A DNA stretch of 64,000 nt, from assembly GCA_963682105.1 (NCBI GenBank), contig OY821638.1:4821245-4885244 (forward strand), given 5' to 3'. Origin of the DNA: Smithellaceae bacterium. GTDB taxonomy: Bacteria > Desulfobacterota > Syntrophia > Syntrophales > Smithellaceae. The notes beneath the pieces are model-generated. The model saw nothing but the letters and a program-made list of their open reading frames with translations, did no database searches and was not told the origin of the DNA. Made by a program: the position numbers and the translations under genes. Shown here one piece after another: positions 5,229 through 38,951 of this stretch. Within the stretch, counting starts at the first letter, position 1; the number at the start of each line of letters is the position of its first letter.

Positions 5229-5255
5229 TGGTTTGAAAATGGAGGAATCCCGGAA

Positions 5256-6767: not shown

Positions 6768-6781
6768 CTGGAGAGCTCTAA

Positions 6782-8092: not shown

Positions 8093-8129
8093 TTCCGGCG
8101 CCATGAAATCATCACGACAGGAGAAGAAT

Positions 8130-8924
8130 ATGACAAAAAAGTATTTCGGCGGATGCGATGTGGGGTCGACAACAGGAAAAGCCGTGATCATCGATGAAGG
8201 CGACAACATCGTCGCCTCCTCCATTGTGCCGAGTGAAATCGACCCTGAGCTGACATCCACGCTCGCCCTTGAAAAAGCCTGTACGCAGATCCAGGGGCTT
8301 AGTGGGCGTGAGGGTCTCCATTATCTGATAGGTACGGGCTACGGCCGTAATGAAGTGCCCTTTGCCCATGAGAACATATCGGAGATCAGTTGTCATGCCA
8401 TGGGCGCATTTTTCTGCAAGCCGGAGATCAAGACCATTGTGGATATCGGCGGTCAGGACGTGAAGGCGATTGCTGTTGACGGCAACGGGTCAGTCATGGA
8501 GTTCGCCATGAACGATAAGTGCGCGGCAGGCACCGGCAGGTTCTTCGAGGCGATGAGCCGGATCTTCCGCATGGATCTTGAGAAGTTTTCAGATCTTTCC
8601 CTGAAGGCGAACAGGATTATCCCGGTAACGGCTCAATGCAGTGTCTTTGCCGAAAGCGAGGTCATCAGTCTTCTGGCCAGAAAGAATCCACCCGATGAGA
8701 TTGCCGCCGGCATCCAGACCGCCGTGTCCAAACGCTGTTTCACCCTGCTCAAGCGTATCGGCATGCGCCCCCAGGTGACGGTTACGGGCGGTTGTGCGAA
8801 GAACAGGGGCCTCATCAAGGCGCTCGCCGGCATCATCAATATGGACGTAACCAGCCTCCCCGTAGACCCTCAGATTATAGGTGCCCTGGGGGCGGCGGTG
8901 TATGCAAAGCAAAAAGGAATGTAA
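8130..8924 (+). CDS. BcrAD_BadFG-type ATPase, copy 3 (HgdC-like activator for module 2)
   Basis: Start moved to ATG 8130, 6 nt after AGGAG. Carries GCDVGSTTGKA, DIGGQD, NDKCAAGTGRF and AQCSVFAESE. Confidence 0.9.
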   Translation: MTKKYFGGCDVGSTTGKAVIIDEGDNIVASSIVPSEIDPELTSTLALEKACTQIQGLSGREGLHYLIGTGYGRNEVPFAHENISEISCHAMGAFFCKPEIKTIVDIGGQDVKAIAVDGNGSVMEFAMNDKCAAGTGRFFEAMSRIFRMDLEKFSDLSLKANRIIPVTAQCSVFAESEVISLLARKNPPDEIAAGIQTAVSKRCFTLLKRIGMRPQVTVTGGCAKNRGLIKALAGIINMDVTSLPVDPQIIGALGAAVYAKQKGM

Positions 8925-12829: not shown

Positions 12830-13204
12830 ATGAAAGGGAAGTGGAAGATTGCAATGGCAGTGACCGTTGTCGCCGCGCTGATCCTGGTTGCGTTTGGCGC
12901 TTTGGCGGTCGAAACGGAGAAAAAAGCCAAGAGTCCCAAACAGCAGGCCCAGCAGGAAAAAATGAAAGCCTGCAATGCCGACGCCAAAGCCAAGGGGCTC
13001 AAGGGCGACGAACGCAAAAAGTTTATGAGTGAATGCCTCAAGGGCGACAAGGACACCTCGGCGACGCCTGCAACGCCGGCCAAAGACACCAAGGCGGCCC
13101 AGCAGGAAAAGATGAAAGCCTGCAACGCCGATGCCAAGGCCAAAGGTCTCAAGGGGGACGAACGCAAGAAATTCATGAGCGAATGCCTCAAGGCCGCTCC
13201 ATAA
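12830..13204 (+). CDS. psiF: PsiF-repeat protein (two PsiF repeats) with signal peptide
   Basis: AAGGAGG precedes the ATG and the N-terminus is hydrophobic. Two copies of AQQEKMKACNADAKAKGLKGDERKKFMSECLK match the PsiF repeat pattern (C-x20-C with KGD.R..FM..CLK). Confidence 0.85.
   Translation: MKGKWKIAMAVTVVAALILVAFGALAVETEKKAKSPKQQAQQEKMKACNADAKAKGLKGDERKKFMSECLKGDKDTSATPATPAKDTKAAQQEKMKACNADAKAKGLKGDERKKFMSECLKAAP
12947..13192. repeat. Internal tandem repeat of the psiF-like gene (2 x 96 nt, period 150 nt)
   Basis: 12947-13042 and 13097-13192 encode 32 identical residues. By my codon-by-codon comparison they differ at 11 synonymous third positions. Confidence 0.9.
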
Positions 13205-13290: not shown

Positions 13291-13818
13291 TTAATGGCGA
13301 TACCGCGGGTAGGGACGCCACGGATAATAATAGTACGGATATGGATTCCAGAAGTACCAGGGGTCATAATAGGAGGGGGTATCCTCCCACTTTTCCCACA
13401 GGTGAAGGGCATTGGACTCGATAACCGGATAAGAGTATGGGTGTTCACCAATCAGCCGTTTTTCTTTTCCCGCAATCTTTCCCACAACCGTTATTTCGCG
13501 ATTTTTGCTGTAAAGGGCCGGGTCAAGAAAACCTCGATGGGAAAGAATAAAACGTCCCGCCGACTTATCCAAATTCGTGGGACGCTTCTGAAAATCGAGA
13601 TCCGTCTGCCTGACGATTATCAGAGTATCATTGGGTTTAGCGATGGTCTCAATGATAACGCCGCCCCAGATGACGCCTTCCCCTTTGAAGTTATCCGGGG
13701 CCTTTAAAACGTCGCTGAATGCGATGTCTCTTTTGACCTCCTGCATAACCTGTTGTGAGAAAGGAGCACAAGAAACGATCAATACGAAAAGGATTGGAAT
13801 GAAAAATTTAGTTCTCAT
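13291..13818 (-). CDS. Slp family outer-membrane lipoprotein, Tyr/Pro/Trp-rich C-terminal tail
   Basis: Lipobox LIVSC. The core VIWGGVIIE...LDFQKRP...SAGRFI...GFLDP matches the Slp pattern. The tail is YYDPWYFWNPYPYYYYPWRPYPRYRH. Confidence 0.8.
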   Translation of the reverse strand: MRTKFFIPILFVLIVSCAPFSQQVMQEVKRDIAFSDVLKAPDNFKGEGVIWGGVIIETIAKPNDTLIIVRQTDLDFQKRPTNLDKSAGRFILSHRGFLDPALYSKNREITVVGKIAGKEKRLIGEHPYSYPVIESNALHLWEKWEDTPSYYDPWYFWNPYPYYYYPWRPYPRYRH

Positions 13819-14352
13819 TTAAAACCCCACTCCCACGCCGCCGCCGATACCGCCGCCGCGGCTTCCACCAACCCCGCCGATGCCGATGCGAAATCGAGGC
13901 GTATTATAGGCGTCATCCGGCTTCCAGAGATAATGTTCACGGGCAGTTATCACGGGATACGTGTAATTGATATCACTGAGCGAGCGGGTGGTCTTGCCTT
14001 CCACCTGTCCTGCCACGGTCAACTTCCTGCCATTTGCATAGATGGTAGGGTCGAGGAAGCCCTTAATGCTGACGATAAAACGGCCTGCTGATTGATCGGC
14101 GTCCGATGGCCGCTGTTGATAGTCGAGGGGCTTTTCCAGAACCTCAATCCACGTTTCGTCAGCCTTCGGGGTTGTCGCAATGATCTGCCCTCCGAGAAGA
14201 ACGATCTTTCCTTTCATTAAATCGGGATCTTTCTGCAGCGCCGTAAAAGAGATACTTTTATCCACGGTGCTCATGGTCGTCTGCGAAATAACGGGAGCAC
14301 AGGCTGATATCAGCGCCACTATACATCCGATGATAACGATTTTTTTACTCAT
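13819..14352 (-). CDS. Slp family outer-membrane lipoprotein, Gly-rich C-terminal tail
   Basis: Lipobox LISAC. The core VLLGGQIIA...LDYQQRP...SAGRFI...GFLDP matches Slp. The tail is IGIGGVGGSRGGGIGGGVGVGF. It abuts the downstream slp paralog with no gap. Confidence 0.8.
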   Translation of the reverse strand: MSKKIVIIGCIVALISACAPVISQTTMSTVDKSISFTALQKDPDLMKGKIVLLGGQIIATTPKADETWIEVLEKPLDYQQRPSDADQSAGRFIVSIKGFLDPTIYANGRKLTVAGQVEGKTTRSLSDINYTYPVITAREHYLWKPDDAYNTPRFRIGIGGVGGSRGGGIGGGVGVGF

Positions 14353-14563
14353 TATTGACCTCGCTTTCCAATCGCGGGGGGTCGAGGTTTGTTAGAGAAC
14401 AACCAGATTGATCCATGCAACAACTACAACTTAAAGGTATTCTTTGTTCACAAAAAGTCAAGGGGATATTTATCCAATCAGTTGAGATTTTATCCGATAG
14501 AAATCACAATTCATGTCCGTTGTTCAATACGTACCGCTAATGATTTTCGAAAGCAGTATTACC

Positions 14564-14592
14564 TTGACAGGCCATAATGAAAAATATAAAAA
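14564..14592 (+). promoter_or_regulatory. Candidate sigma70-type promoter of the PqqD/HprK-like operon
   Basis: TTGACA (14564-14569), 17-nt spacer, TAAAAA (14587-14592). This is mutually exclusive with translation of the 30-codon ORF that starts at 14577. Confidence 0.3.
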
Positions 14593-14669
14593 AACTCTGC
14601 TTTGTCAGACAGGACGCAGACGCAAAAGAGCAGAAATTCATATTCTTTTCGGGAGTTCAGCATGTTTGA
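14577..14669 (+). CDS. Speculative 30-codon ORF (MKNIKKLCFVRQDADAKEQKFIFFSGVQHV) overlapping the PqqD-like start
   Basis: I translated it by hand. Its stop TGA (14667-14669) overlaps the PqqD-like ATG (14662) by 8 nt. The only upstream SD-like element is a weak AGG. No homology evidence. Confidence 0.15.
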   Translation: MKNIKKLCFVRQDADAKEQKFIFFSGVQHV

Positions 14670-15102
14670 TATATCTCAGCAAGTCATTCACGAAACCATC
14701 GACGGCGAAACGATGATTGTCCGTCTCGACAGCGGCAATTATTACAGCATGAATCCGATTGGCGGCCAGGTCTGGGCCTTGATTGAACAGGGGGCGTCAA
14801 AAGATCAGATTGTCTCCGCGTTTTCCGGGCTTTACGGCCTTGAAAAAAAGAGCGTTGAAGAGCCGATAGAAACTTTCCTCAAGTATCTCATTGTAGAAGA
14901 ACTGATTCTTCCCAACGGGGCGTCGTCGCATGCAGGCGCGGTGTATTCGCCCGCCGGCATGGAGCGCCTGACGGATTTCTTTGAACCGCCGCTTCTTTCC
15001 AAATATTCCGATATGCAGGAACTGCTCATCCTCGATCCCATTCATGACGTAAGCGATGCAGGCTGGCCGAATCCCAAGCCGGAAAAAGAGGATAATGGAT
15101 AA
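14662..15102 (+). CDS. PqqD family protein (RiPP-recognition-element-type peptide chaperone)
   Basis: ATG 14662 lies 6 nt after GGGAG. ETMIVRLDSGNYYSMNPIGGQVWALIEQGASKDQIVSAFSGLYGL...VEEPIETFLKYLIVEELI is the PqqD pattern. A ~55-aa C-terminal extension follows. Confidence 0.8.
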   Translation: MFDISQQVIHETIDGETMIVRLDSGNYYSMNPIGGQVWALIEQGASKDQIVSAFSGLYGLEKKSVEEPIETFLKYLIVEELILPNGASSHAGAVYSPAGMERLTDFFEPPLLSKYSDMQELLILDPIHDVSDAGWPNPKPEKEDNG

Positions 15103-16231
15103 CAGAGAAATCGGGCGGGAACCGCTTGCGACGGTGGAGCCTGCGGAAAGTCATGCGCTTCTCGACGCCTACTTCGATTCCGCACTGAAAATATTTATAT
15201 CCGCACAGGCAACGCACACCGGGCCTGTCAAAAAGTATTTCACGCTTTGCGGCAAAACCATAGAACTGACCTTTGCCAATGAGCGGCTTCTTCCTTACAT
15301 AACTCCTGCACTGGAACATATTGCGGCTTCCGCCGTGGACAGCCCTGCGCTTAAAGTCTTCATCTGGGACGATGCGACGACCGGAACCGTTATGCCCGCA
15401 CCGCCCTGGTTCGGCTATGCCGTGCAGAAGCAAGGCGGTCATCTGGAAGGCCTCTATACAAGACGGGGCGATGTCCGGGGGTTCAACAGCAGCCGCATCA
15501 AAACCGCTTACAACTGGTCCGCCAATGCGCTCAGCATGTATGACGCCGGCGAAGCAACAGCCCTGTACTGGACGAGGGACGCTCGGGATTTGCCTGCCTA
15601 TGAGACAAGCGCACCGATTCGAAACATTCTCAACTGGTGGGCCCAGGAGCGCAATTACCATTTTGCACACGGGGCGGCGGTCGGGACCGCGGACGGCGGA
15701 GTGCTTCTTGCGGGCAAGGGCGGATCGGGCAAGTCCACGGCGGCGCTGGCCTGCCTGAACTCGGGCCTGTTTTACGCAAGCGACGATTATTGCCTGGTTA
15801 CCGCGGACCCTGTGCCTGCGGCGTACAGCATATTTTCTTCCGCCAAGGTCGATCCCGGAAACATTTTCAGGGTTGAGCATATCGCGCCGTCGCGGGGCAG
15901 AACCGGAAACAAGTATGACGATAAAGAAGTCTTTTTTCTGTATCCGCGATTTGCCGACCGGATCATTCCGGGGTTTCCGCTGCGAGCCATCCTGCTGCCC
16001 CGGATCACCGGCAAGCCGCATTCGGCCTTAAGCCCGGCAACGCCGGCCGACGGCGTCAAGGCCCTGACCATCAGCACGATGTGCCAGTTTCCCGGCGCGG
16101 GTAAAAAAGTGGTGGATATCATGCAGCGCCTCGCCGCGGCGCTGCCCTGTTATCATCTGGATTTCGGGACGGACCCGGCACAGGTTCCCGCGTTGATTCT
16201 GAATCTGCTTGAAAAGAGAAAGGATGGATAA
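15095..16231 (+). CDS. HPr-kinase C-terminal-domain-like P-loop protein (HprK-related kinase)
   Basis: ATG 15095 overlaps the PqqD-like stop (ATGGATAA). The P-loop LLAGKGGSGKSTAALACL followed by FYASDDYCLV resembles the HprK GxSGxGKS...ADD core. Confidence 0.7.
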   Translation: MDNREIGREPLATVEPAESHALLDAYFDSALKIFISAQATHTGPVKKYFTLCGKTIELTFANERLLPYITPALEHIAASAVDSPALKVFIWDDATTGTVMPAPPWFGYAVQKQGGHLEGLYTRRGDVRGFNSSRIKTAYNWSANALSMYDAGEATALYWTRDARDLPAYETSAPIRNILNWWAQERNYHFAHGAAVGTADGGVLLAGKGGSGKSTAALACLNSGLFYASDDYCLVTADPVPAAYSIFSSAKVDPGNIFRVEHIAPSRGRTGNKYDDKEVFFLYPRFADRIIPGFPLRAILLPRITGKPHSALSPATPADGVKALTISTMCQFPGAGKKVVDIMQRLAAALPCYHLDFGTDPAQVPALILNLLEKRKDG

Positions 16232-16234
16232 GCC

Positions 16235-17419
16235 GTGAAGATCATCATGCTCAGCCCTTTTACGCCGTACCCGCCGGATTCGGGCGGACGCATCCGTCAA
16301 TGGGAGTTCATCAAATGTCTGGGCAGACGCCATGATCTGACGATCGTCTTTTTTATCAACAAAGGGGAGGAAAAGATTCTCGAAGGCGCCTTTGACGGCG
16401 TCTGTTCCCGGGTGGCCACGATTACACACGCTGGAGATACGGCGCCGACAGGCCCGCAATCTCTGCCCTGGCCGATGCGTTCCTACGGCGTGGAACCCAT
16501 GCGGAAGCTGCTTACGGAACTGGCCGCCAATCGCTATGATCTGCTCCTGACCGACTTTATTTACATGGCCCAGCACCGCTCCCTTTTTGACGCGCCGGCC
16601 GTCCTTCATGAGCACAACATCGAATCATCCATCTACAAACAATACTCCGAACTTCCCAATGTGCAGGATATGGAGATTTTCGGCATCCGGAAAGATGCTC
16701 TTTTCTGGAAGGCAACCTGGATGCTCATGCGTCAGTACGAAAACAAGACATGGCCCGCGTTCGATCTTCGGATTACCGTAAGCCGGCTCGATAAGACCCA
16801 GATGGACTCGCGCTGTCCGGACGGGCGAACCATTGTTGCCGAAAACGGCGTCAACACAAAGGACATTCGGCTGCTGCCGGTCAACCGTTCCAAGAAGATT
16901 CTGTTTGTCGGCACGATGAATTATTTTCCCAATGTAGATGGAGCTTTGTTTATGGTCCAGTCCATCATGCCCCATATCCGGCGTCTGGATCCGGATATCC
17001 GGCTGTGCATCGCGGGAAAAGATATTCCCCGTCATATTCGTGAGCTCGGCGCGGATACCCGGATAGAGATTATCTCTGATTTCCCGGATATTTCTGAGGT
17101 GGCGGCGGACTGTTGCCTGTCGGTGGTTCCTTTGAGGCTGGGCGGCGGTACGCGCATCAAAATACTCGAAGCCTTCGCCTTGGGACTGCCGGTGGTTTCC
17201 ACCGCAAAGGGATGCGAGGGGCTTGATGTTGAAGACGGCCGGCAGCTTGTTATCCGGGATGATCCGGAAGCCTTTGCCGAAGCGGTGGTCAGAGTTGCCA
17301 ACAACCATGAGCTGGCCGACTCGCTCCGCGAAAACGGCCGCAGTCTTGTGGAAGGACGATACGACTGGCAAAAGATATTCGAAACAGCCGAAGAGCAAAT
17401 GCTGAAACTGGTAAAATAA
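16235..17419 (+). CDS. Glycosyltransferase family 4 (GT-B, group 1)
   Basis: GTG start 3 nt after the upstream stop. N-terminal MKIIMLSPFTPYPPDSGGRIR; C-terminal SVVPLRLGGGTRIKILEAFALGLPVVST (EX7E-type region). Confidence 0.85.
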   Translation: MKIIMLSPFTPYPPDSGGRIRQWEFIKCLGRRHDLTIVFFINKGEEKILEGAFDGVCSRVATITHAGDTAPTGPQSLPWPMRSYGVEPMRKLLTELAANRYDLLLTDFIYMAQHRSLFDAPAVLHEHNIESSIYKQYSELPNVQDMEIFGIRKDALFWKATWMLMRQYENKTWPAFDLRITVSRLDKTQMDSRCPDGRTIVAENGVNTKDIRLLPVNRSKKILFVGTMNYFPNVDGALFMVQSIMPHIRRLDPDIRLCIAGKDIPRHIRELGADTRIEIISDFPDISEVAADCCLSVVPLRLGGGTRIKILEAFALGLPVVSTAKGCEGLDVEDGRQLVIRDDPEAFAEAVVRVANNHELADSLRENGRSLVEGRYDWQKIFETAEEQMLKLVK

Positions 17420-18789
17420 TGGACTCCCGGGTCGCAAGAAGCATCTATGAATTTCTTCGTCGCATCCTCAAACGGCGCTTCCGGATGATTTTCTTTTCGC
17501 CGGCAAGGGCCTTGAAGGCTGCATACCGTAAACCGGCAAGCCAGAATACGAACGCTTCGCTTGATGCAACAGGGCGTAACGTCCGGACGGCAAAGGAAAT
17601 TTCCATCCAGGAGAATGTCATTTCCTATCCGCTGACGGCGGCAACAGGCGAAAATGAACCGGGCATCCTCTATTTTGGAGGGCTTGCCAACCCTGAAACG
17701 CAAACGCTGATCCGCGAAGCCATCCATTGCCGTGGAATGGTTTGCAGTCAATCGCTTCCGGCAACCTCGGTTGAAAAGCAAATTCCTGTCAACTGTCTGG
17801 AAATCCGGCAACCGGTTCTTTACGGGGGAATCCTTTTTAACCATTTCGGTCATTTCATTCTGGAATCATTATCCCGGTTATATGCCTATCCGATGGTTCG
17901 GGACATTGATCCGTTTGTGTTGTTTTATAGCCAATGGGGGATCCCAAGGTACCTGGAGAAAAATAACTTTGTCAACCAGATCCTCACGGGACTCGGTATT
18001 CCGGTGCACAGACTGATCTTTGTTGAACGCGTCGCCAAAATTCGCACAGTCATCATTCCGGATCAAAAGTACGGCTTTGGATTGACCCGCCGGCCGGACG
18101 AGATGTTTTTGACGTTCATCAGAAGTTTTCGTTTTCAATATAAGATTCCCGGGGGGCTTAAAAAAGCGGAAAAGATCTACGTATCAAGATCCGGATTGCG
18201 CAATAAAGGAAGACAAATCGGCGAAAAGATTTTCGAGGCGTATCTCGCCGGCGAAGGATACGGAATATTTTATCCTGAACGGCATACCTTTTTCGAACAA
18301 TTGACGGTATACGCCCGCGCCGGAAAGCTGATTATCTCGGAGGGGAGCGCATTATTTTCATGTATGTTTCTCCCGGAAATGAACGCGGATATTGCCGTCG
18401 TCTGCAGAAGAAGAGAGCCGGATCACAGCATGCGCGGAGTAACGGACTGCCTGCATGATTCTGGCAGGAACATCCTGTGGATCGATGCCGTGCGCGAACA
18501 ATATCAATTTGGTCTCGATACCTGGGATGCGCTGGCTGATATCGACTGGTGCGAGGTGAGCCGTCTGTTGCGGAATCATGGTTTTGTAAATAATCCGTTC
18601 CGGCGCTTAGCCGACGACAAACATCTGGCGCTTGTCCGGTCCGAGCTCCGGGAATATCTGCGTGAGATATCCGGAAACCCGAAATTTGTCGATCACATGA
18701 TGCAATTAAAAGAAATCCACCCGTTCCGGATCGAACCTCTCGATCCTGGCGATTCCCGGGGTGGGGTAAAAGAGAGAAATCAGATATGA
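17419..18789 (+). CDS. Glycosyltransferase family 61 / DUF563 protein
   Basis: GGILFNHFGHFILESLSRLY and the later ISEGSALFS are the DUF563/GT61 hallmarks. The start overlaps the upstream stop (TAATG). Confidence 0.75.
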   Translation: MDSRVARSIYEFLRRILKRRFRMIFFSPARALKAAYRKPASQNTNASLDATGRNVRTAKEISIQENVISYPLTAATGENEPGILYFGGLANPETQTLIREAIHCRGMVCSQSLPATSVEKQIPVNCLEIRQPVLYGGILFNHFGHFILESLSRLYAYPMVRDIDPFVLFYSQWGIPRYLEKNNFVNQILTGLGIPVHRLIFVERVAKIRTVIIPDQKYGFGLTRRPDEMFLTFIRSFRFQYKIPGGLKKAEKIYVSRSGLRNKGRQIGEKIFEAYLAGEGYGIFYPERHTFFEQLTVYARAGKLIISEGSALFSCMFLPEMNADIAVVCRRREPDHSMRGVTDCLHDSGRNILWIDAVREQYQFGLDTWDALADIDWCEVSRLLRNHGFVNNPFRRLADDKHLALVRSELREYLREISGNPKFVDHMMQLKEIHPFRIEPLDPGDSRGGVKERNQI

Positions 18790-19496
18790 AGAAAAACGAA
18801 TCCATCAGTGTCATCATCCCGGTATACAACGGGGAGCGTTACATTGCCGAGGCCGTCGGAAGTGTCCTTGCACAGGATTACCCCCGGATCGAAATCGTCG
18901 CGGTGGATGACGGATCAACCGACCGCACCGCCGAATTACTGCGGTCTTATGCGAATGTGCACTACGTCTGTCAATCCAGACTGGGGGCTTCAGCCGCGCG
19001 CAACAACGGCGTTCGCTGTTCGTCAGGCGATTGGCTTGCCTTTCTGGACGCGGATGATCTCTGGATGCGCGATAAGCTGAAAGTGCAGACCGCCCTGTTG
19101 CGGACCAATCCCGACCTGGACATGGTTTTCGGATATGTCGAACAGTTCTACAGCCCGGAACTCGAGGCGTCGCTGAAAAGCAAAATAAAATTTGCCGAAG
19201 GCAGCATGCCCGGATATGTTCCGGGCTCCATGCTCGTCCGGAAAGATTCCTTTCTGAAGGTTGGCTTCTTCAATGAGGCATTCAAGATAGGTGAGTTCAT
19301 TGACTGGTACACGAGAGCGCTGGATTACGGTTTGAACGGTCATCTTGCCCGGGAAGTTGTGTTAAGAAGACGAATTCATGACGCCAATACCGGCATTCGG
19401 GAAAGGGATTCCCGCAAGGATTATCTGCGGGTGCTGAAAGCTTCGCTGGACAGACGAAGAATGAACGAAAAGAGAAAAGAGGCCGGTGGCGAATGA
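18786..19496 (+). CDS. Glycosyltransferase family 2
   Basis: ISVIIPVYNGERYIAEAVGSVLAQDYP..EIVAVDDGSTDRT plus the LDADD motif. ATGA overlap with the upstream gene. Confidence 0.9.
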   Translation: MKKNESISVIIPVYNGERYIAEAVGSVLAQDYPRIEIVAVDDGSTDRTAELLRSYANVHYVCQSRLGASAARNNGVRCSSGDWLAFLDADDLWMRDKLKVQTALLRTNPDLDMVFGYVEQFYSPELEASLKSKIKFAEGSMPGYVPGSMLVRKDSFLKVGFFNEAFKIGEFIDWYTRALDYGLNGHLAREVVLRRRIHDANTGIRERDSRKDYLRVLKASLDRRRMNEKRKEAGGE

Positions 19497-20650
19497 CGAC
19501 CGATAAAGAAGGCTTTTTCTGGCCGACGCACGAGCAGGAATTACTTCTTCAAGCGACGCTGCTCAAAGAGGAAAATGCCGTCACCGCATGGCGCAGTTGG
19601 GCCGCTTGCGTTAATTTCGATCGGCTGGATGCCGGCTCTCAGCGCCTTTTGCCCCTGCTTTATAAAAACCTCACCGATCAAAAGGTGAGGCATCCGGTTC
19701 TCGATGTGTACAAGGGGTTTTACCGGATGACCTGGTACAAGAACCGCCTTTTGTGCCATCGCATTACCGGTGTTTTACGTCTTCTGAATCAGCACGGCAT
19801 AGCGGCTCTGTTGTTGAAGGGGGCTGCTCTGGTCTCCCTTTATTATAAGGATTGGGCTCTGCGTCCGATGAATGACTTCGATTTGCTGGTGGAGCAGGAC
19901 CAGGTGATGAAAGCCGTTGAGCTTTTGTGCCGAAACGGCTGGACCCCGGTTGATTCACCGCCCGCCGAATCGGACTTTCAGACCCGGCATGCCTGTACGC
20001 TCACCGATGGTTCTGGCATCGAATTTGACCTTCACTGGCGGATCATGCATGAATCAGGCTGCAATGATGTTGATGACAACTTCAAGGGCAGCGCCATGCG
20101 GATCGATTTTTGCGGGGTTTACGTGTCCGTGCTGTCCCACACGGACCAGCTTTTTCACGTTCTTGTTCACGGCGTACGCTGGAACGTTATCGCGCCCCTG
20201 CGATGGGTTCCCGATGCAATGATGGTTTTGCGGGAAGCAGGATCGAAGATAGACTGGAACAGATTATTGCAGGAAGCCCGCGGCAGACGCCTTGTCGTCT
20301 CCCTGAAAAAATCGCTTACCTATCTTTATGACGGGTTTGCCGCGCCGATTCCGACTGACATCATGGCAACGGTGAAAAGATTGAAGCCGTCTGTGACGGA
20401 GCGACTGGAGTTTTGGATGAACAGCCGGCCCCGGGGGCTTCTGAGGGATATTGTTTATCTCTGGTTTACGCATGTCAGGACATCCGGCACTTCGGGATCG
20501 GTCAGGCTGTTGCTCCGATTTCCCTCTTTTCTCAGAACATTCTGGAAGGCGCCGGAGAAAAAGAACACGGCGGGTTTTCTGTTGGGCCGACTGATCAGAA
20601 GAATCTTTAATGGCGCCGGAGCATCACCCGGACAAAACCCGGCCGCCTGA
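19493..20650 (+). CDS. Uncharacterised nucleotidyltransferase family protein (NTP_transf_5 / PF14907-like)
   Basis: LLLKGAALVSLYYKDWALRPMNDFDLLVEQDQ...FDLHWRIMH matches the family pattern (LKG...R...D.DLLV...DLH). ATGA overlap with the upstream gene. Confidence 0.75.
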   Translation: MTTDKEGFFWPTHEQELLLQATLLKEENAVTAWRSWAACVNFDRLDAGSQRLLPLLYKNLTDQKVRHPVLDVYKGFYRMTWYKNRLLCHRITGVLRLLNQHGIAALLLKGAALVSLYYKDWALRPMNDFDLLVEQDQVMKAVELLCRNGWTPVDSPPAESDFQTRHACTLTDGSGIEFDLHWRIMHESGCNDVDDNFKGSAMRIDFCGVYVSVLSHTDQLFHVLVHGVRWNVIAPLRWVPDAMMVLREAGSKIDWNRLLQEARGRRLVVSLKKSLTYLYDGFAAPIPTDIMATVKRLKPSVTERLEFWMNSRPRGLLRDIVYLWFTHVRTSGTSGSVRLLLRFPSFLRTFWKAPEKKNTAGFLLGRLIRRIFNGAGASPGQNPAA

Positions 20651-20699
20651 AGAAGAGCCGCTGCTCGTAAGAAAATCACTGAAGAGGTATAATATTTTA

Positions 20700-22470
20700 A
20701 TGATTGCCGCCTTGTTAAAAAAAATATCAGGCGACTGGTATAATGAAAACATTTATTTCAAATATCGGATTCATAAAATGTCCCCCTGGAAGCGCATGCC
20801 GGCGCGATTTATTTTCCTGCCCATGGCCTTCGGGAGAAGACTCAACAAGTTCATCCGCGATAGACTGGAAATACCCGGCGTGGAAATGTCCATCATCACT
20901 CCCTGCAACCCGCATTGCAGAGACTGTGAAAGCCTGAATCCTCTTCATCCGCAACCGGTTGCTCCGGACATCGACCGGCTTATCAGGGATGCAAACGATT
21001 TTTTGTTCCACGTGGATTGTGTGCACCGCCTGATGATTACAGGCAGCGAGCCCTTTGCTTATCGTGAATTCCCTGCGCTCTTGACTTACCTGCTTGGGCA
21101 GGACAAAATTAATCTGGTGCATCTTTTCACCCGCGGTTCGGTTCTTCCAGGACCGGATATTCTGCAGTTACTCAGGCATCGCAAAATCCTGGTGACGATC
21201 AGCAGTTATCCGGCGGAAGATTCGCCGGATAAACCCCGTTTCATTGCCGTTATGGAAGAAAATTGCATCAATTACATGGTGAAAGATACCTGGCGGGATC
21301 TGGGCAGTTTCAATCCTGTTGCGGATGGCAGTCTGGACGCCATGAAACACCGTTTTGCAAGATGTGTCAGCAGAGTTCATAATCTGAACGGCGGCGAGTA
21401 CCATCTGTGCCCCCGGTCGGCTCATGGCCGGCAATTGAGACAGTTTTCTCCGGAGAAGCCGGAGAGCGTGATCTTCCGGGACAGGAAAAACCCTCAGGCG
21501 TTTAAAAAAGAGATGCGGCAACTTCTGCTGAAAAAGTATCTTACCGCCTGTCGCCAATGCGGGGGAAGCCGCAGAGAAACAAAAATGGACATCCTGTTAC
21601 AGACATTGTCGGGAAGATGGTACAATGAAAATATTTACTATAAATATCACATCCACAAGATGTCGCCGGGGCGGCAGGATGCAGCGCGGCTCTTGTTCCT
21701 GCCTTTGTCCATGGGGATAAAACTCAACAGTGCGATACGTCATCGATTGGAAATACCGCATATCGAACTGCCGATTACCACCCGCTGCAACCTGCGCTGT
21801 AAAGACTGCGGGAATTTAATTCCTTTTTATCCGCGTCCGGCTGATTTTGACGTGGAACAGTTGATTCAGGATGCCGATGACTTTCTGAATCATGTGCATC
21901 GGGTTCACCGTTTTATCGTTATGGGCGGTGAAACCTTTCTCTACCGGGAATTGCATCGATTATTAAGTCACCTGATTCAACAAAACAAGATTGGTCTTCT
22001 GCACCTTTTTACCAATGGTTCCGTCATCCCCAAAACAGAGATCCTGCAATTGCTGAAGCATCGCAAAATCCTGGTGTCCGTGAGCAGTTTCCCGGCGGAG
22101 GTGTCCCCCAACAAAGCCCGTTTCATTGATATCCTCGAAGAAAACCATATCAATTATAAAATAGAAGATCATTTGTGGCGGGATCTGGGCGGCATCAATC
22201 CGGACGTGGACAGCCGTCCGGAAACACTGAAGCGTCGTTTCGCCAATTGCAGCATTAAAGGGTGCCATAACTTGAGCAACGGCGAATATCATTTATGTCC
22301 CCGATCTGTTCATGGTGAGCAGTTGGGACAATTTGTGCCGGATGCCTCGGACAAAGTGGTCATCCGGAACCGGAAGGATCCCCATGCCTTTAAAAAAGAA
22401 CGGCAGGCTTTGCTTCGGAAAGAATATCTTGCCGCCTGCAGCAGATGTACGGGCAAACCCGAAGAAACCG
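20700..22470. repeat. Intragenic tandem duplication (module 1 20700-21584; module 2 21585 to about 22470)
   Basis: Aligning the two halves by eye gives roughly half identical residues and no stop codon between them. Confidence 0.85.
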
Positions 22471-22592
22471 TTTATCCGGGCATTCAGATATCCGGGGGTG
22501 TTGCAGATATAATCGGAAAAAACGACAGGCCGTCTTCAGAGGCCCGGGGAAAAAATCAGGATATTTCCGATCTTGCCCGCCTGAAAATCTGA
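20700..22592 (+). CDS. Fused twin radical-SAM enzyme (two paralogous ~295-aa rSAM modules in one ORF)
   Basis: Module 1 has ITPCNPHCRDC and module 2 has ITTRCNLRCKDC (both CxxxCxxC). Each module starts with ...SG.WYNENIY.KY.IHKMSP and ends with YL.AC..C. Start ATG 20700 is chosen by symmetry with the module 2 Met at 21585; the ORF is also open from 20610. Confidence 0.8.
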   Translation: MIAALLKKISGDWYNENIYFKYRIHKMSPWKRMPARFIFLPMAFGRRLNKFIRDRLEIPGVEMSIITPCNPHCRDCESLNPLHPQPVAPDIDRLIRDANDFLFHVDCVHRLMITGSEPFAYREFPALLTYLLGQDKINLVHLFTRGSVLPGPDILQLLRHRKILVTISSYPAEDSPDKPRFIAVMEENCINYMVKDTWRDLGSFNPVADGSLDAMKHRFARCVSRVHNLNGGEYHLCPRSAHGRQLRQFSPEKPESVIFRDRKNPQAFKKEMRQLLLKKYLTACRQCGGSRRETKMDILLQTLSGRWYNENIYYKYHIHKMSPGRQDAARLLFLPLSMGIKLNSAIRHRLEIPHIELPITTRCNLRCKDCGNLIPFYPRPADFDVEQLIQDADDFLNHVHRVHRFIVMGGETFLYRELHRLLSHLIQQNKIGLLHLFTNGSVIPKTEILQLLKHRKILVSVSSFPAEVSPNKARFIDILEENHINYKIEDHLWRDLGGINPDVDSRPETLKRRFANCSIKGCHNLSNGEYHLCPRSVHGEQLGQFVPDASDKVVIRNRKDPHAFKKERQALLRKEYLAACSRCTGKPEETVYPGIQISGGVADIIGKNDRPSSEARGKNQDISDLARLKI

Positions 22593-22606
22593 CTTGAATC
22601 CTGAGT

Positions 22607-23410
22607 TCAAACCTTCATACCCGGCAGGTTGAGCGATGCCGTGTTGCCGCCGTCCACCGGCAGGGCCTGTCCGGTGATGTAACTGGCCGCGTCGCTGGCT
22701 AAAAAGCAGATCGCCTGGGCCACTTCTTCCGGGCGACCGTAACGCCGCAGTTCACAGCGGCTGCCGAGCTTATCGACCTTGCCTTTATCACGGGCCAGCT
22801 CAAATATCGGACGGGTCATTCCCGTTTCGATCAGGCCGGGACAGACGGCGTTGACGCGGATGTTGAAGCCGCCCAGATCGCATGCTGCCGTTTGTGTAAA
22901 GTTAATCACGGCGGCTTTGCTGGCGCTGTAAGCGTTCAGGCCGGCGCCGGCGCGGATTCCGGCCACGGAGGCTGTATTGACGATGGCACCGGAATTTCTT
23001 CCCCGCATATGCTTTGCGGCGTGCTTGATCGCGAAAACGGCGCCCAGAACATTGACTTCATAAACATGCTGCCAGTCTTCTTTGGATTCCTGATCCAGCC
23101 CGAGAAACTCTCCCGTGATGCCCGCATTGTTGCACAGGATGTCAATCTGTCCGTAAGTCTGAACGGCAAAATTGATCAGCGCTTCGACATCGCTTTCCTT
23201 TGATACATCCGTCTGTCTGCCGACAACGGCGCCTTTTTCCTCTTTTACGAGACCGACGGTTTCCGTCAGGCCCTTTTCATTGATATCAGCCAACAGCAGC
23301 TTTGCGCCTTCGCGGGCAAAAAGAATCGCCGCCGCACGGCCGATGCCGTCTGCCGCTCCGGTGATGACAGCCACTTTTCCTTCCAGACGTCCATTTTCCT
23401 TGTTTGTCAT
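22607..23410 (-). CDS. Short-chain dehydrogenase/reductase (SDR)
   Basis: TGAADGIGRAAA (TGxxxGxG), NNAG, and YSASKAAV (YxxxK). Confidence 0.9.
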   Translation of the reverse strand: MTNKENGRLEGKVAVITGAADGIGRAAAILFAREGAKLLLADINEKGLTETVGLVKEEKGAVVGRQTDVSKESDVEALINFAVQTYGQIDILCNNAGITGEFLGLDQESKEDWQHVYEVNVLGAVFAIKHAAKHMRGRNSGAIVNTASVAGIRAGAGLNAYSASKAAVINFTQTAACDLGGFNIRVNAVCPGLIETGMTRPIFELARDKGKVDKLGSRCELRRYGRPEEVAQAICFLASDAASYITGQALPVDGGNTASLNLPGMKV

Positions 23411-26817: not shown

Positions 26818-28311
26818 TTAAACCATTTTTGTCAGCGTTCCGGGTTTCAGTTGTTCGATTCCCGCAAGGTAATTGGCAAGATGTTCCCGAAGTTTGATGT
26901 CGTACTGGGATGTGATGGCAATCTGCTCCATGATGGGTGATCCGCCGCCGTGATAGTTGCCATAGTTCATCGATCCGGTGGCTGAGGAACAGGTAAAATC
27001 AATGAAGGACAGCCAGAACCGAATCTGATGCTCGATCGGTATTTTGGGATTGCGCATCAGGTATTTCTCCAGTGTTGCTTTGGTTTCCGGATTGGTGAGA
27101 TCACCTTCATAGGGGAATGTGGCTGGCAGGCCGCCTGCGATGTTGCAGAGAATTTCCTGCTCGTGGAAGACGGCTTCGCCGGTGAGGCATCGGCCCACAT
27201 TGGCATAAATCGAATTCGGGATGTAGCTGCCCGGTCCGTAGGGTATGGGGCCCATTCCCGGGACATAAATTTCAGGCTTTGCCGTGGCCGATGCGGTAAA
27301 GCCCGCCGCATAACCCAGTTCCGAAACCGTGATGATTTCCGCCAGCATTTCCCGGATGTGCGATTCTTTCCTGATGCCATTGACATTGGCGGCCTGCGAA
27401 GCCATGCCCAGAAGAACATCACCGATCGCCGGCTTGCAGCCTGAATAGCTGTGACGGTGAAACAGCGCAAACAGAAGGGCGCAGGCGCCGCCGTGCATAT
27501 TTTCCCCGCAGAGGAACACGCGTTCCCACGGCACAAAGACGTTATCAAAGACCACATAGGAATCCGTATAACCCCCATCAAAGCCCCGTTGGTAATGCTT
27601 ACGCTCGCGCATCGCATGGATATGGACGATTTGCCTTACTCCCTCATGATCGGCCGGGACGGCAAACGCAACGGCATAGTCTTTCTCATCCGGACCCAGC
27701 GCGCGGGTGGGCACAACCATAATTTCATCGGCAATCGACGCCTCCGAGATATGGACTTTGCAGCCATTGACAACGATGCCGTCTTTCTTTTTTTCCACCA
27801 CATGAAGGTATGCATCCGGATCCGTCTGCTCGGCCGGTCTTTTCAATCGCTCGCCTTTCACATCCGTCTGGGCGCTGCACCCCACCAGATCGTTTTTCTG
27901 GAAATAGTCAAGCCACTTCAGAAAATTTTTATGGTATTCCGTGTTGCCGTTGTTCTGCTTGTCGGCTTCGAAGGAAGCGGCATTGACGGCGTTGAGCGCA
28001 TCGCATCCCATGCACCGCTGGATGCATAAGCCGACCTTCCTGCAAAGGGCACGCGTCATGTTCTGCTTTTTATGCAGATCCTCAGGAGACTGATGAACAT
28101 GGCAGAACCGGTTGATGATTTCACCTGATAAATGGGATTTGGCCGTGCACAGGTCTTTGAGCTCGGGATCGCATGCGGCGTCAAAAGTAACGCCCATGAC
28201 ATTAAGAACCTTCTGCTGGACTTCATCGGTTCGGTCAATTTTATTCCCGTCAAAAAATAAATTCCGCCGCATCTTTCTTAAGCCTTCTACGTATTGCTCT
28301 CTCGTTCTCAT
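26818..28311 (-). CDS. 4-hydroxybutyryl-CoA dehydratase / vinylacetyl-CoA isomerase family protein (AbfD-like), paralog 1
   Basis: 497 aa with AAAGGAGG SD. It has CIQRC (Cx3C) and HRHSYSGC (Hx6C), matching the AbfD [4Fe-4S] ligand spacing (C99/C103/H292/C299 in the Clostridium enzyme, from memory). Confidence 0.8.
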   Translation of the reverse strand: MRTREQYVEGLRKMRRNLFFDGNKIDRTDEVQQKVLNVMGVTFDAACDPELKDLCTAKSHLSGEIINRFCHVHQSPEDLHKKQNMTRALCRKVGLCIQRCMGCDALNAVNAASFEADKQNNGNTEYHKNFLKWLDYFQKNDLVGCSAQTDVKGERLKRPAEQTDPDAYLHVVEKKKDGIVVNGCKVHISEASIADEIMVVPTRALGPDEKDYAVAFAVPADHEGVRQIVHIHAMRERKHYQRGFDGGYTDSYVVFDNVFVPWERVFLCGENMHGGACALLFALFHRHSYSGCKPAIGDVLLGMASQAANVNGIRKESHIREMLAEIITVSELGYAAGFTASATAKPEIYVPGMGPIPYGPGSYIPNSIYANVGRCLTGEAVFHEQEILCNIAGGLPATFPYEGDLTNPETKATLEKYLMRNPKIPIEHQIRFWLSFIDFTCSSATGSMNYGNYHGGGSPIMEQIAITSQYDIKLREHLANYLAGIEQLKPGTLTKMV

Positions 28312-29669: not shown

Positions 29670-31163
29670 TTAAGTCATTTTAGTCAGCGTTCCCGCCTTC
29701 AGGGGTTCAATTCCCGCCAGATAATTGGCCAGATGTTCCCGAAGTTTGATATCATACTGGGAGGTAATGGCAATCTGTTCCATGATCGGCGATCCGCCGC
29801 CGTGATAGTTGCCGTAGTTGATCGATCCGGACGTTGACGAACAGGTGTAATCAATGAAGGACAGCCAGAACCGAATCTGATGCTCGATCGGTATTTTGGG
29901 ATTGCGCATCAGGTATTTTTCCAGCGTTGCCTTGGTTTCCGGATTGGTGAGATCGCCTTCATAGGGGAAGGTGGCCGGCATGCCGCCTGCAATGTTGCAC
30001 AGAATTTCCTGCTCATGGAACACGGCTTCGCCGGTGAGGCATCGGCCCACATTGGCGTAGATCGAATTCGGAATGTAACTGCCCGGTCCGTAGGGGACAG
30101 GACCCAGTCCCGGAATATAGATTTCCGGTTTGGCCATGGCCGATGCGGTAAAGCCTGCGGCGTACCCCAGTTCCGAAACCTTGATAATTTCAGACAGCAT
30201 TTCCCGGATATGCGACTCTTTCTTGACGCCGTTGACATTGGCGGCCTGAGATGCCAGGCCCAAAACGATGTCGCCGATGGCAGGCTTGCAGCCGGAATAG
30301 CTGTGACGGTGGAACAGCGCAAACAGGAGAGCGCAGGCGCCGCCGTGCATATTCTCGCCGCAGAGGAACACGCGGTCCCACGGCACGAAAACATGGTCAA
30401 AAACAATATAGGAATCCGAATAGCCGAAACTGAAGCCTCTTTGATAATGCTTGCGTTCGCGAAGCGTATGAAGATGGACGATCTGCTTTACGCCTTCATG
30501 ATCAGCGGGCACGGCAAACGCAACGGCATAATCTTTTTCATCCGGACCCAGCGCGCGGGTGGGCACAACCATGATTTCATCGGCAATGGACGCCTCCGAG
30601 ATATGGACCTTGCAGCCATTGACGATGATGCCGTCTTTATTTTTTTCCACCACATGGAGATAGGCATCCGGGTCTGTCTGCTCGGCCGGTCTTTTCAACC
30701 GCTCGCCTTTCACATCCGTCTGGGCGCTGGCGCCGACCAGATCGTTTTTCTGGAAATATTCGAGCCATTTCAGGAAATTTTTATGGTACTCCGTGTTGCC
30801 GTTGTTCTGCTTGTCCGCTTCGAAGGAGACGGAATTGACGGCGTTGAGCGCGTCGACGCCCATACACCGCTGGATGCACAGGCCGACTTTTCGGCACAGG
30901 GCGCGGGTCATGTTCTGCTTTTTATGCAGATCCTCCGGAGACTGATGAACGTGGCAGAACCGGTTGATCGTTTCGCCCGTCAGATGGGATTTGGCCGTGC
31001 ACAGGTCCTTCAGTTCGGGATCGAAGGCCGCGTCAAAGGTAACGCCCATGACGTCGATCACCCTTTTCTGGACCTCGTCGGTTCGGTCAATCTTGTTGCC
31101 GTCAAAATATAAATTCCGTCGCATCTTTTTCAGACCTTCTATGTACTGCTCTTTGTTTCTCAT
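29670..31163 (-). CDS. AbfD-like dehydratase family protein, paralog 2
   Basis: Start moved to ATG 31163 (AAAGGAGG SD, same geometry and 497-aa length as paralog 1). It keeps CIQRC and HRHSYSGC. Confidence 0.8.
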   Translation of the reverse strand: MRNKEQYIEGLKKMRRNLYFDGNKIDRTDEVQKRVIDVMGVTFDAAFDPELKDLCTAKSHLTGETINRFCHVHQSPEDLHKKQNMTRALCRKVGLCIQRCMGVDALNAVNSVSFEADKQNNGNTEYHKNFLKWLEYFQKNDLVGASAQTDVKGERLKRPAEQTDPDAYLHVVEKNKDGIIVNGCKVHISEASIADEIMVVPTRALGPDEKDYAVAFAVPADHEGVKQIVHLHTLRERKHYQRGFSFGYSDSYIVFDHVFVPWDRVFLCGENMHGGACALLFALFHRHSYSGCKPAIGDIVLGLASQAANVNGVKKESHIREMLSEIIKVSELGYAAGFTASAMAKPEIYIPGLGPVPYGPGSYIPNSIYANVGRCLTGEAVFHEQEILCNIAGGMPATFPYEGDLTNPETKATLEKYLMRNPKIPIEHQIRFWLSFIDYTCSSTSGSINYGNYHGGGSPIMEQIAITSQYDIKLREHLANYLAGIEPLKAGTLTKMT

Positions 31164-31268
31164 ATGTGCCTCCTTTAAGACGTGTCTTATGTCGATCAAT
31201 AAATTATTGACGTTCATAATATTTGTCTATATTTTAACTCATAATAAATAAAAATCAATAAATATTAA

Positions 31269-38798: not shown

Positions 38799-38913
38799 AA
38801 AAACTCCTCTAAGTAAATAATCCGTACTGTCATTATTACGATTAGCGCTTATCGTCAAGTACCCAATCGCATAAAAACAAACAGGATAACGTAATGTAAG
38901 GAGTGTGAAAACG

Positions 38914-38951
38914 AAAGAAAAAAAGCTGATGGCCGTTGCCATCAGCTTTTT
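38914..38951 (-). terminator. Rho-independent terminator after atpB
   Basis: 10-bp stem AGCTGATGGC / GCCATCAGCT with a 4-nt loop. An A-run on one side and a T-run on the other give a U-tract on the minus strand. Confidence 0.8.

Follow-up and report, generated by a model that had tools for sequence, protein, structure and literature searches.

The tandem radical-SAM gene

The window analysed here is a stretch of 64,000 nucleotides (nt) from a Smithellaceae bacterium, and all positions without a locus name refer to it. On its + strand lies a gene (20700..22592) for a protein in which two homologous radical S-adenosylmethionine (SAM) modules are joined in one polypeptide. Sequence comparison indicates a genuine tandem duplication within one gene, conserved among homologues, of a twitch-type radical-SAM enzyme of approximately 300 amino acids (aa). 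The longest open reading frame (ORF) in the ORF list spans 20610..22592 (+) and codes for 660 aa with no internal stop. The true start is likely to be the ATG at 20700, since most homologues begin at this position, at MIAALLKK (alignment A1), and an AAGAGG sequence lies 11 nt 5′ of it.

Module 1 (M1; residues 31–325 of the 660-aa ORF; 20700..21584, +) is the diverged copy and module 2 (M2; residues 326–660; 21585..22589, +) the canonical copy. BLASTP alignment of M1 (295 aa) with M2 (335 aa) gave 162 identities over 292 aa (55%) and 73% positives, with an E-value of 2e-121 and two gaps, each of a single residue. This agrees with a first-pass annotation of the window, in which the modules were judged by eye to be alike along their whole length with roughly half of their residues identical. 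The similarity runs from the N-terminal helices (SGxWYNENIYxKYxIHKM) through the radical-SAM core to the C-terminal CxxC; as it covers the whole module it extends far beyond the generic radical-SAM core, and the possibility that it was confined to that core was not borne out. At the DNA level the modules share 65% identity, spread fairly evenly along their length, with a longest exact match of 19 nt, so the duplication in this genome is old and not a recent conversion or an assembly repeat. Recent gene conversion between M1 and M2 was considered for the window gene and rejected on account of this short longest match.

Both modules carry the CxxxCxxC motif for the radical-SAM cluster ligands and a C-terminal cysteine set of the form C..C..CxxC, as had been reported. 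The motif reads CNPHCRDC in M1 (C99, C103 and C106; 20904..20927, +), conserved in 15/15 M1 sequences, and CNLRCKDC in M2 (C393, C397 and C400; 21786..21809, +), conserved in 25/25 M2 sequences. The cysteines predicted to bind a twitch-type auxiliary cluster are C252, C267, C314 and C317 in M1 (21357..21566, +) and C547, C563, C610 and C613 in M2 (22242..22454, +). The same part of M2 holds Cys552 in a ‘GCH’ motif, a candidate hydrogen-atom donor, with Val256 at this epimerase-type cysteine position in M1. The GGE motif was correctly read at the outset as VMGGETF in M2 and ITGSEPF in M1: it is canonical in M2 (MGGETF; 21921..21938, +), where it is invariant in 25/25 sequences, and by the conservation counts degenerate in M1 (TGSEPF; 21039..21056, +), with Ser146 in place of the second Gly. 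The TNG motif is likewise canonical in the alignment of M2 (FTNGS; 22008..22022, +) and by the counts degenerate in M1 (FTRGS; 21126..21140, +), where Arg175 replaces the Asn.

The frame is uninterrupted between the modules, as first described, and a hidden stop or frameshift is excluded by the existence of at least 22 fused homologues. The Met at 21585, which had been pointed out as the first residue of M2, is Ile in the 93%-identical homologue P0001 and Val, Pro or Leu in others (alignment A1); since it is not conserved it provides no evidence for an internal start, and internal initiation at 21585 seems unlikely. A C-terminal tail of 120 unique residues had also been claimed. From the end of the M1/M2 alignment the tail is in fact only about 40 aa long (residues 621–660), and its first residues form a family motif, PGIQ (22476..22487, +), which is found after M2 and in single-module relatives and not after M1. 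The 34 aa that follow PGIQ (22488..22589, +) are unconserved in alignment A1. A promoter and terminator scan of 14200–22900 returned counts near the shuffled expectation and was uninformative on operon boundaries or an internal promoter.

Relationship to SpeY and other twitch enzymes

Against the Pfam radical-SAM model PF04055, which matches both halves and has a gathering threshold of 29.5 bits, the whole protein scored 57.4 bits and M2 alone 40.8 bits, with M1 alone falling below the threshold at 19.4 bits. No SPASM domain match was detected in the tandem protein with Pfam at E-values up to 1. No curated NCBIfam model reached its cutoff for the tandem protein or for its single-module relatives. 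The best NCBIfam match of the tandem protein was to the twitch family NF033640 (N_Twi_rSAM), at 40.6–41.1 bits against a cutoff of 170, and the single-module relatives scored 27–44 bits against the same model.

SpeY is the twitch radical-SAM dehydrogenase of spectinomycin biosynthesis and HygY the twitch radical-SAM epimerase of hygromycin B biosynthesis. The nearest solved structure to the tandem protein in a single-sequence phmmer search was 7WZV (SpeY; E 7e-8). A profile built from 12 sequences of the family matched 7WZV with an E-value of 2.4e-14, aligned from the CxxxCxxC motif to the terminal CxxC and so over both core and twitch, with MoaA (E 2e-6) and the peptide epimerase YydG (E 0.05) both matched over the core alone. 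An AlphaFold2 model of the whole protein, made from a 27-sequence alignment, had a mean predicted local distance difference test score (pLDDT) of 68.9 and a predicted template modelling score (pTM) of 0.53. The core strands were modelled with pLDDT values of 80–94, the cluster loops were low, as expected for an apo model, and residues 610–660 were below 50. The top Foldseek match of this model was again 7WZV (‘Twitch Radical SAM Dehydrogenase SpeY’; E 6e-10, template modelling score 0.59 normalised to SpeY), with further matches to MoaA (E 8e-6), SkfB, SuiB and BtrN (E 3e-4).

In the SpeY orthologue P0175, the cysteines C175, C194, C241 and C244 fall in invariant columns with C547, C563, C610 and C613 of M2 and C252, C267, C314 and C317 of M1. 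These four aligned twitch cysteines, together with the lack of a SPASM domain, show that each module consists of a radical-SAM core and a twitch domain, and each is predicted to be a site for a radical-SAM cluster and one twitch [4Fe-4S] auxiliary cluster. A search with a SpeY fragment yielded orthologues at their native length of 302 aa and 119 members of the clade, none of which came from the family of the tandem protein. Identity to the SpeY orthologues was 18–21%, and with no clade hits in common the tandem protein is therefore a distant relative of the SpeY/HygY clade and not a member of it.

The SpeY orthologues carry Ser183 in the sequence W-x-S-H-T, and Cys183 is found in the Streptomyces hygroscopicus homologue P0219, which we take to be HygY, and in its relatives. 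In pairwise HMMER and MAFFT alignments Cys552 of M2 shares this column, and M1 has Val256 there. Cys183 of HygY is reportedly the hydrogen-atom donor that completes epimerisation, its C183A variant being a dehydrogenase, and the SpeY enzyme with Ser183 is said to be a dehydrogenase that a Ser-to-Cys change turns into an epimerase. The Ser183 and Cys183 seen in the retrieved orthologues lend this switch indirect support. By this column, and as far as the reported residue-183 switch can be carried over, an epimerase type is suggested for M2 and the majority of the family, and any activity of M1 would be of the dehydrogenase type.

Each module thus resembles SpeY (PDB 7WZV, 7WZX and 7X0B) and HygY in its size of about 300 aa and in its layout of a core with a C-terminal twitch domain. 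Unlike these enzymes, the tandem protein belongs to a separate family of about 3,400 relatives with an N-terminal two-helix extension of its own and the PGIQ motif. Its modules are duplicated and fused, and its host operon lies in anaerobic Syntrophales and not in an actinomycete aminoglycoside cluster. BtrN and MoaA likewise end in a SPASM-like but shortened domain with a single auxiliary [4Fe-4S] site, the ‘twitch’ domain (defined in PMC10114671). They differ in being single-module proteins with other substrates, and their similarity to the tandem protein is remote and lies mostly in the core.

Divergence of the two modules

Conservation was compared between 142 diverse single-module representatives, 25 M2 sequences and 15 M1 sequences. 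Twenty-nine alignment columns were at least 75% conserved in the single-module representatives, and essentially every one is retained in M2. In M1 the seven cluster cysteines are all present (15/15 each), as are several structural residues. The second Gly of GGE is present in 100% of single-module representatives, in 100% of M2 sequences and in only 4/15 M1 sequences, the others having S, Y, V, D or A. The Asn of TNG, again 100% in both of the former sets, is kept in 3/15 M1 sequences and is otherwise R, P, D or T. Two further differences concern the extra Cys of ‘GCH’ (81% of single-module representatives, 92% of M2, 1/15 M1) and the terminal Gln of PGIQ (92%, 100% and absent, respectively). 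The residues that replace the GGE and TNG positions of M1 differ between lineages, and this variety of replacements in different clades indicates that the SAM-contact positions of M1 are under relaxed constraint and have not acquired a new specific requirement. Judging from the same counts, the cluster ligands of M1, unlike its SAM-contact positions, are still under strict selection.

M1 evolves faster than M2. Mean pairwise identity was 55.2% among M1 sequences against 60.6% among M2 sequences, M2 was the more conserved module in 82/91 pairs, and M2 was closer than M1 to the single-module relative P0027 in all 14 of the proteins compared. The first-pass annotation had left the choice between a fusion with two active sites and a catalytic module paired with a degenerate or scaffold one. 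With the motifs of M2 intact and the SAM motifs of M1 eroded, the balance leans towards the second. Identity between M1 and M2 of the same protein ranges from 36 to 85%, reaching 85% in P0006 and 61% in P0005 and lying between 36 and 55% elsewhere. In P0006 the GGE and TNG motifs and the extra Cys are again present in M1, and gene conversion between the modules has probably taken place in P0006 and P0005.

Distribution and phylogeny

A homologue search over 5.8 billion proteins returned 26 relatives, at least 22 of which are full-length two-module proteins of 577–660 aa with 50–93% identity, among them proteins encoded on a Smithellaceae chromosome of 4.78 Mb and on a contig of 1.19 Mb. When 185,579 species genomes were scanned, the fused gene turned up in Smithella, in Smithellaceae and in metagenome-assembled genomes (MAGs) labelled ‘Deltaproteobacteria’, all of them Syntrophales. 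The fusion is confined to Syntrophales-type bacteria. The same operon surrounds the fused gene at loci L001, L002, L004, L007, L009 and L010, and the module junction (CxxCxGSxxET followed by LLxxLxGxWYNEN) is conserved among the fused homologues.

A HMMER scan with M2 against 1.84 billion representatives, one per 50%-identity cluster, gave 3,395 relatives at E ≤1e-3 and 2,046 at E ≤1e-10. Nearly all are single-module proteins, either of about 300 aa or of about 400 aa, the longer ones having an additional Rossmann-like domain at the N-terminus; the fused form amounted to one cluster plus fragments. This Rossmann-like domain shows weak similarity to PglD_N and to the C-terminal domain of sugar C-methyltransferases, which hints that it may bind a nucleotide-sugar. 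The closest single-module relatives are P0027 (52% identity) and those of the Syntrophomonadaceae loci L011–L014, in which the N-terminal helices and PGIQ tail are also found. Among distant relatives two paralogues occur as adjacent, separate genes, as in L035 (1488–2651 and 2658–3830), with the same arrangement in L036, and also in L021, L025, L029 and L032 (9608–10789 and 15419–16597). It should also be noted that in L029 (883–3117) an aldo-keto reductase is joined to a radical-SAM enzyme, and that this fusion and the paralogue pairs of L032, L035 and L036 come from Lachnospiraceae and Gastranaerophilales.

In a neighbour-joining analysis all M1 and M2 sequences and the single-module genes of L005 and L006 formed one clade with 80% bootstrap support, placing the other single-module proteins outside. 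The M1 sequences grouped together with 60% support, which rose to 81% when P0005 and P0006 were omitted, and the internal branching of M1 and M2 was roughly congruent. This topology is consistent with the fused lineage having arisen by a single duplication at its base.

The operon and related cassettes

The tandem gene closes a row of seven + strand genes that are tightly packed and in part overlap. The first encodes a PqqD-family protein (14602..15102, +; PF05402) with a conserved C-terminal extension ending in KYSDMQELLILDPIHDVSDAGWP (alignment A3). It is followed by the gene of an HprK/ScmC-like P-loop kinase homologue (15056..16231, +), with weak matches to PF07475, TIGR04355 and TIGR04352, and by those of three glycosyltransferases (GTs) assigned with Pfam to families GT4 (16235–17419, +), GT61 (17419–18789, +) and GT2 (18786–19496, +). 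Between these and the tandem gene lies a nucleotidyltransferase-family gene of the type PF14907 (NTP_transf_5; 19493..20650, +; E 3.6e-42). The HprK-model matches of the kinase-like protein are weak (20–33 bits), and ScmC is weakly matched by one of its orthologues. Every fused homologue examined sits in this same cassette as its last gene, with GT61 being variable.

The extension of the PqqD-family protein is approximately 60 aa long and ends in the near-invariant motif KYSDMQELLILDPIHDVSDAGWP, encoded at about 15001–15069. The motif has no Pfam annotation and is kept even between cassettes that are just 33–37% identical overall. It could be a tail for docking a partner or could itself be the modified substrate. 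The PqqD-family protein has 452 homologues, and its genes in related loci are found at L001 4165–4623, L002 5292–5729, L004 3701–4141, L005 14696–15124 (−) and L006 2788–4065. The PqqD and kinase-like genes of the window overlap by 47 nt (15056–15102). Similar overlaps occur in most orthologous loci (L002 5671–5729, L004 4092–4141), with none in L001 as gene-called, which suggests that the two genes may be translationally coupled.

The genomic contexts of the PqqD homologues show a constant core, made up of the extended PqqD protein, the kinase-like protein, glycosyltransferases and the PF14907 protein, and an accessory enzyme that varies. The accessory slot is held in Syntrophales by the tandem radical-SAM protein and in L005 and L006 by a single enzyme of the same family. 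An orthologous Nitrospiraceae operon, the other genes of which are 57–66% identical, has a single HygY-like twitch enzyme in this slot, which is 38% identical to the putative HygY (E 4e-79) and 23% identical to M2. In four more distant cassettes a PF07221 GlcNAc-2-epimerase-family protein is the accessory, encoded before the nucleotidyltransferase, and in one related cassette the accessory enzyme is absent. The core cassettes outside Syntrophales are located at L041 10001–16406, L042 10001–16516, L043 10001–16108, L044 9001–15374 and L045 4953–11083, and an ABC exporter adjoins the cassette in L042 and L043.

The cassettes of L005 (9791–15124) and L006 (1610–7596) are paralogous and strongly diverged, with identities of 36–38% for the PqqD protein, 26–29% for the kinase-like protein and 31% for the PF14907 protein. 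Their single-module radical-SAM gene is 61–67% identical to M2 despite these diverged neighbours, a discordance which suggests module loss or transfer. Fusions are also present in these cassettes, namely a double GT2 of 457 aa and, in L006, a GT2–PqqD fusion. L006 is labelled as a Bathyarchaeia MAG, for which binning contamination or horizontal gene transfer is possible.

The combination of a PqqD-family, an HPr-kinase-like P-loop and a nucleotidyltransferase-family (PF14907) protein resembles the tailoring of lasso peptides. In lasso clusters the members of such a trio serve to bind the leader, to phosphorylate the Ser at the C-terminus and to attach hexoses to this phosphate, examples being the HPr-kinase homologues of paeninodin clusters and the kinase PsmK and nucleotidyltransferase PsmN of pseudomycoidin (PMC8498205). 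Unlike the lasso clusters, the operon has no cyclase, B2 peptidase or recognisable precursor and adds three glycosyltransferases and the radical-SAM fusion; no lasso cyclase or B2 peptidase was found among the seven operon genes in Pfam and NCBIfam scans. A search for a precursor peptide compared ORFs of 20–130 aa from 11–26 kb of the window with seven related loci and revealed none that was conserved. All cross-locus matches of small ORFs, including those in the flank 14352–14602, were alternate-frame shadows inside cassette genes.

The operon also shares the logic of the SynChlorMet cassette, in which ScmC (HprK-like) and ScmD (PqqD-like) are combined with ScmE and ScmF (radical-SAM/SPASM). 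Cross-matches to the SynChlorMet models, which have cutoffs of 100–400 bits, reached 17.7 bits for ScmD (cutoff 100), 21.2 bits for ScmE (cutoff 400) and 27.7 bits for ScmF, the last with P0027. That cassette differs in that ScmE and ScmF are SPASM proteins from separate genes and in having neither glycosyltransferases nor a PF14907 gene. A literature search on PF14907- or HprK-related cassettes returned nothing relevant.

Proposed function and alternative explanations

An asymmetric arrangement, in which M2 is an epimerase-type catalyst tailoring a sugar and M1 a drifting partner that retains its clusters, is held to be the probable one, if by no means securely so. M2 would be the working catalyst, its radical-SAM cluster cleaving SAM so that the 5′-deoxyadenosyl radical could abstract the carbinol hydrogen from a sugar of the glycoconjugate built by the operon. 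Epimerisation would result when Cys552 gave back a hydrogen atom from the other face, and the twitch cluster of M2 may handle the redox bookkeeping, that is the electron of the thiyl or substrate radical. M1 would no longer be an equivalent epimerase but a cluster-bearing module impaired in SAM binding, possibly serving as a pseudo-dimer scaffold or an electron relay. In lineages with intact GGE and TNG, such as that of P0011, it may be a second, Cys-less site of the dehydrogenase (oxidising) type.

By analogy with phospho-glycosylated lasso peptides, the probable task of the operon as a whole is to add phosphate and sugars to a peptide or protein that the PqqD protein recruits. The radical-SAM protein is expected to tailor the sugar and not the peptide backbone because three epimerase-type enzymes, mutually unrelated or only distantly related, share the accessory slot and because distant members of the radical-SAM family adjoin GT2 genes without any PqqD. 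A much bolder and rather doubtful extension would make the operon an example of a widespread and as yet undescribed pathway for the phospho-glycosylation of a peptide or protein, guided by a RiPP (ribosomally synthesised and post-translationally modified peptide) recognition element (RRE), with the Syntrophales sugar tailored by a radical epimerase whose pseudoenzyme module M1 acts as a two-cluster relay or scaffold. One candidate target of such a pathway is the PqqD protein, with its invariant tail at the C-terminus.

Several points weigh against the asymmetric arrangement or against parts of it. The structure model is only moderate and has no reliable inter-module geometry, identity to the SpeY orthologues is low, as given above, and the assignment of residue 183 as hydrogen donor, and with it the epimerase type, is tentative, P0219 being a presumed HygY. 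The comparison of small ORFs with the seven related loci found no precursor gene adjoining the cassette, and a peptide substrate would be just as compatible with the presence of a PqqD/RRE protein in the operon. M1 of P0005, P0006 and P0011 has canonical GGE and TNG, so that the decay of M1 is lineage-specific and incomplete. SAM binding need not be lost with the change of Gly to Ser in GGE and the absence of the Asn from TNG. Finally, M1 is clearly under purifying selection with its radical-SAM triad kept, to which a second active site would fit as well.

These last points lead to the strongest of the alternatives, an enzyme with two active sites, which is regarded as a possibility of some substance although not a likely one. 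Both modules would cleave SAM and between them catalyse two distinct radical reactions, acting on one sugar or on successive ones; Cys-less M1 could, for example, be a SpeY-like dehydrogenase and Cys-bearing M2 a HygY-like epimerase. Every member has CxxxCxxC and the four twitch cysteines in both modules, the mean pairwise identity of M1 (55%) speaks for purifying selection, and M1 keeps the Glu of GGE, the T, G and S of the TNG strand and P180 in 14–15 of 15 sequences, in addition to the three proteins with canonical motifs just named. The adjacent paralogous pairs of L035/L036, L032 and L021 further suggest that modules of this type may work in pairs. A precedent for two sites is FbiC (FO synthase), in which CofG and CofH, encoded by separate genes in other organisms, are fused and the two radical-SAM domains each generate their own 5′-deoxyadenosyl radical (PMC11917521). 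It was the only case returned by a literature search on tandem radical-SAM proteins. FbiC, however, joins paralogues that diverged long ago and are both active, whereas the copies in the tandem protein are 36–85% identical and one of them shows motif decay. No CofG, CofH or FbiC model was among the NCBIfam matches of the tandem protein at E-values up to 1, so the likeness is architectural only. The two-site reading is also at odds with the various replacements, in 11–12 of 15 M1 sequences, of two positions that are invariant in 167 canonical modules, a pattern of relaxed constraint. M1 alone falls under the Pfam radical-SAM threshold, and related cassettes have one radical-SAM module (L005, L006, L041) or none.

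It is considered improbable, more so than a second active site, that the protein is a RiPP maturase that modifies amino-acid residues in a peptide brought to it by the PqqD (RRE) protein, C-alpha epimerisation and cross-linking being examples, with the glycosyltransferases serving a separate purpose. A PqqD-family gene does open the operon, the SynChlorMet cassette also combines a PqqD-like and an HprK-like protein with two radical-SAM proteins, and a Cys hydrogen donor and a twitch-like domain are likewise features of EpeE/YydG-type peptide epimerases (PMC13012085). The weak NCBIfam matches to WgkB, HxsC, AlbA, PapB and ScmE/F, which would favour such a role, are limited to the generic N-terminal core and lie far under their cutoffs (e.g., 21 against 400 bits). 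The sole solved structure to align over both core and twitch is SpeY (E 2.4e-14), YydG reaching only E 0.05. A maturase would also have to be reconciled with the relatives in glycosyltransferase loci without PqqD, with the HygY-like enzyme or PF07221 sugar epimerase that occupies the slot in related cassettes, and with the lack of a conserved precursor ORF adjoining the cassette in the comparison with seven related loci.

An assembly or sequencing artefact, by which a missed stop or frameshift misjoined two adjacent paralogous genes of the kind that exist in L035/L036, is rejected as next to impossible, since the frame is continuous in at least 22 independently assembled homologues of 50–93% identity, including those on the 1.2-Mb and 4.8-Mb contigs, the junction is conserved across them, and M1 lacks the C-terminal PGIQ motif of free-standing family members.

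On the preferred asymmetric reading, the two halves of the protein form a natural experiment, with the extra Cys and the SAM motifs in M2 and the seven cluster cysteines alongside drifting SAM-contact residues in M1. They offer a tractable means to study the role of a radical-SAM cluster once SAM chemistry is not required and the evolution of pseudo-dimeric radical-SAM enzymes. The known epimerases and dehydrogenases of the twitch radical-SAM type that act on sugars come from only a few aminoglycoside pathways, and the family described here is a large sister family of about 3,400 relatives. The tandem gene also draws attention to a conserved cassette of PqqD, kinase, nucleotidyltransferase and glycosyltransferase genes with interchangeable epimerase-type accessory enzymes, which may encode a new glycoconjugate pathway. 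Twitch enzymes (BtrN, MoaA, SpeY and HygY) and the fused double radical-SAM protein FbiC were already known (PMC11917521, for the latter). What is new is the lineage-restricted internal duplication in a SpeY-like twitch family, the asymmetric decay of M1 and the undescribed cassette. The function proposed for the tandem protein is inferred, and current understanding of these enzymes is not overturned by it.

Other features of the window

Directly 5′ of the operon lie two tandem paralogous genes for Slp-family outer-membrane lipoproteins, at 13291–13818 (−) and 13819–14352 (−), preceded at 12830–13204 (+) by the gene of a PsiF-repeat protein that contains two internal repeats. Elsewhere the window resembles syntroph acyl-CoA metabolism. 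The region 29–8924 encodes HGD-D subunits of the 2-hydroxyacyl-CoA-dehydratase type together with three BcrAD/BadFG activator ATPases, a ferredoxin and a CdhC-like protein. Downstream of the operon are two HpaB-like paralogues, at 26818–28311 and 29670–31217 (−), and a protein of 1484 aa with BcrAD ATPase domains and DUF2229 (34488–38942, −).

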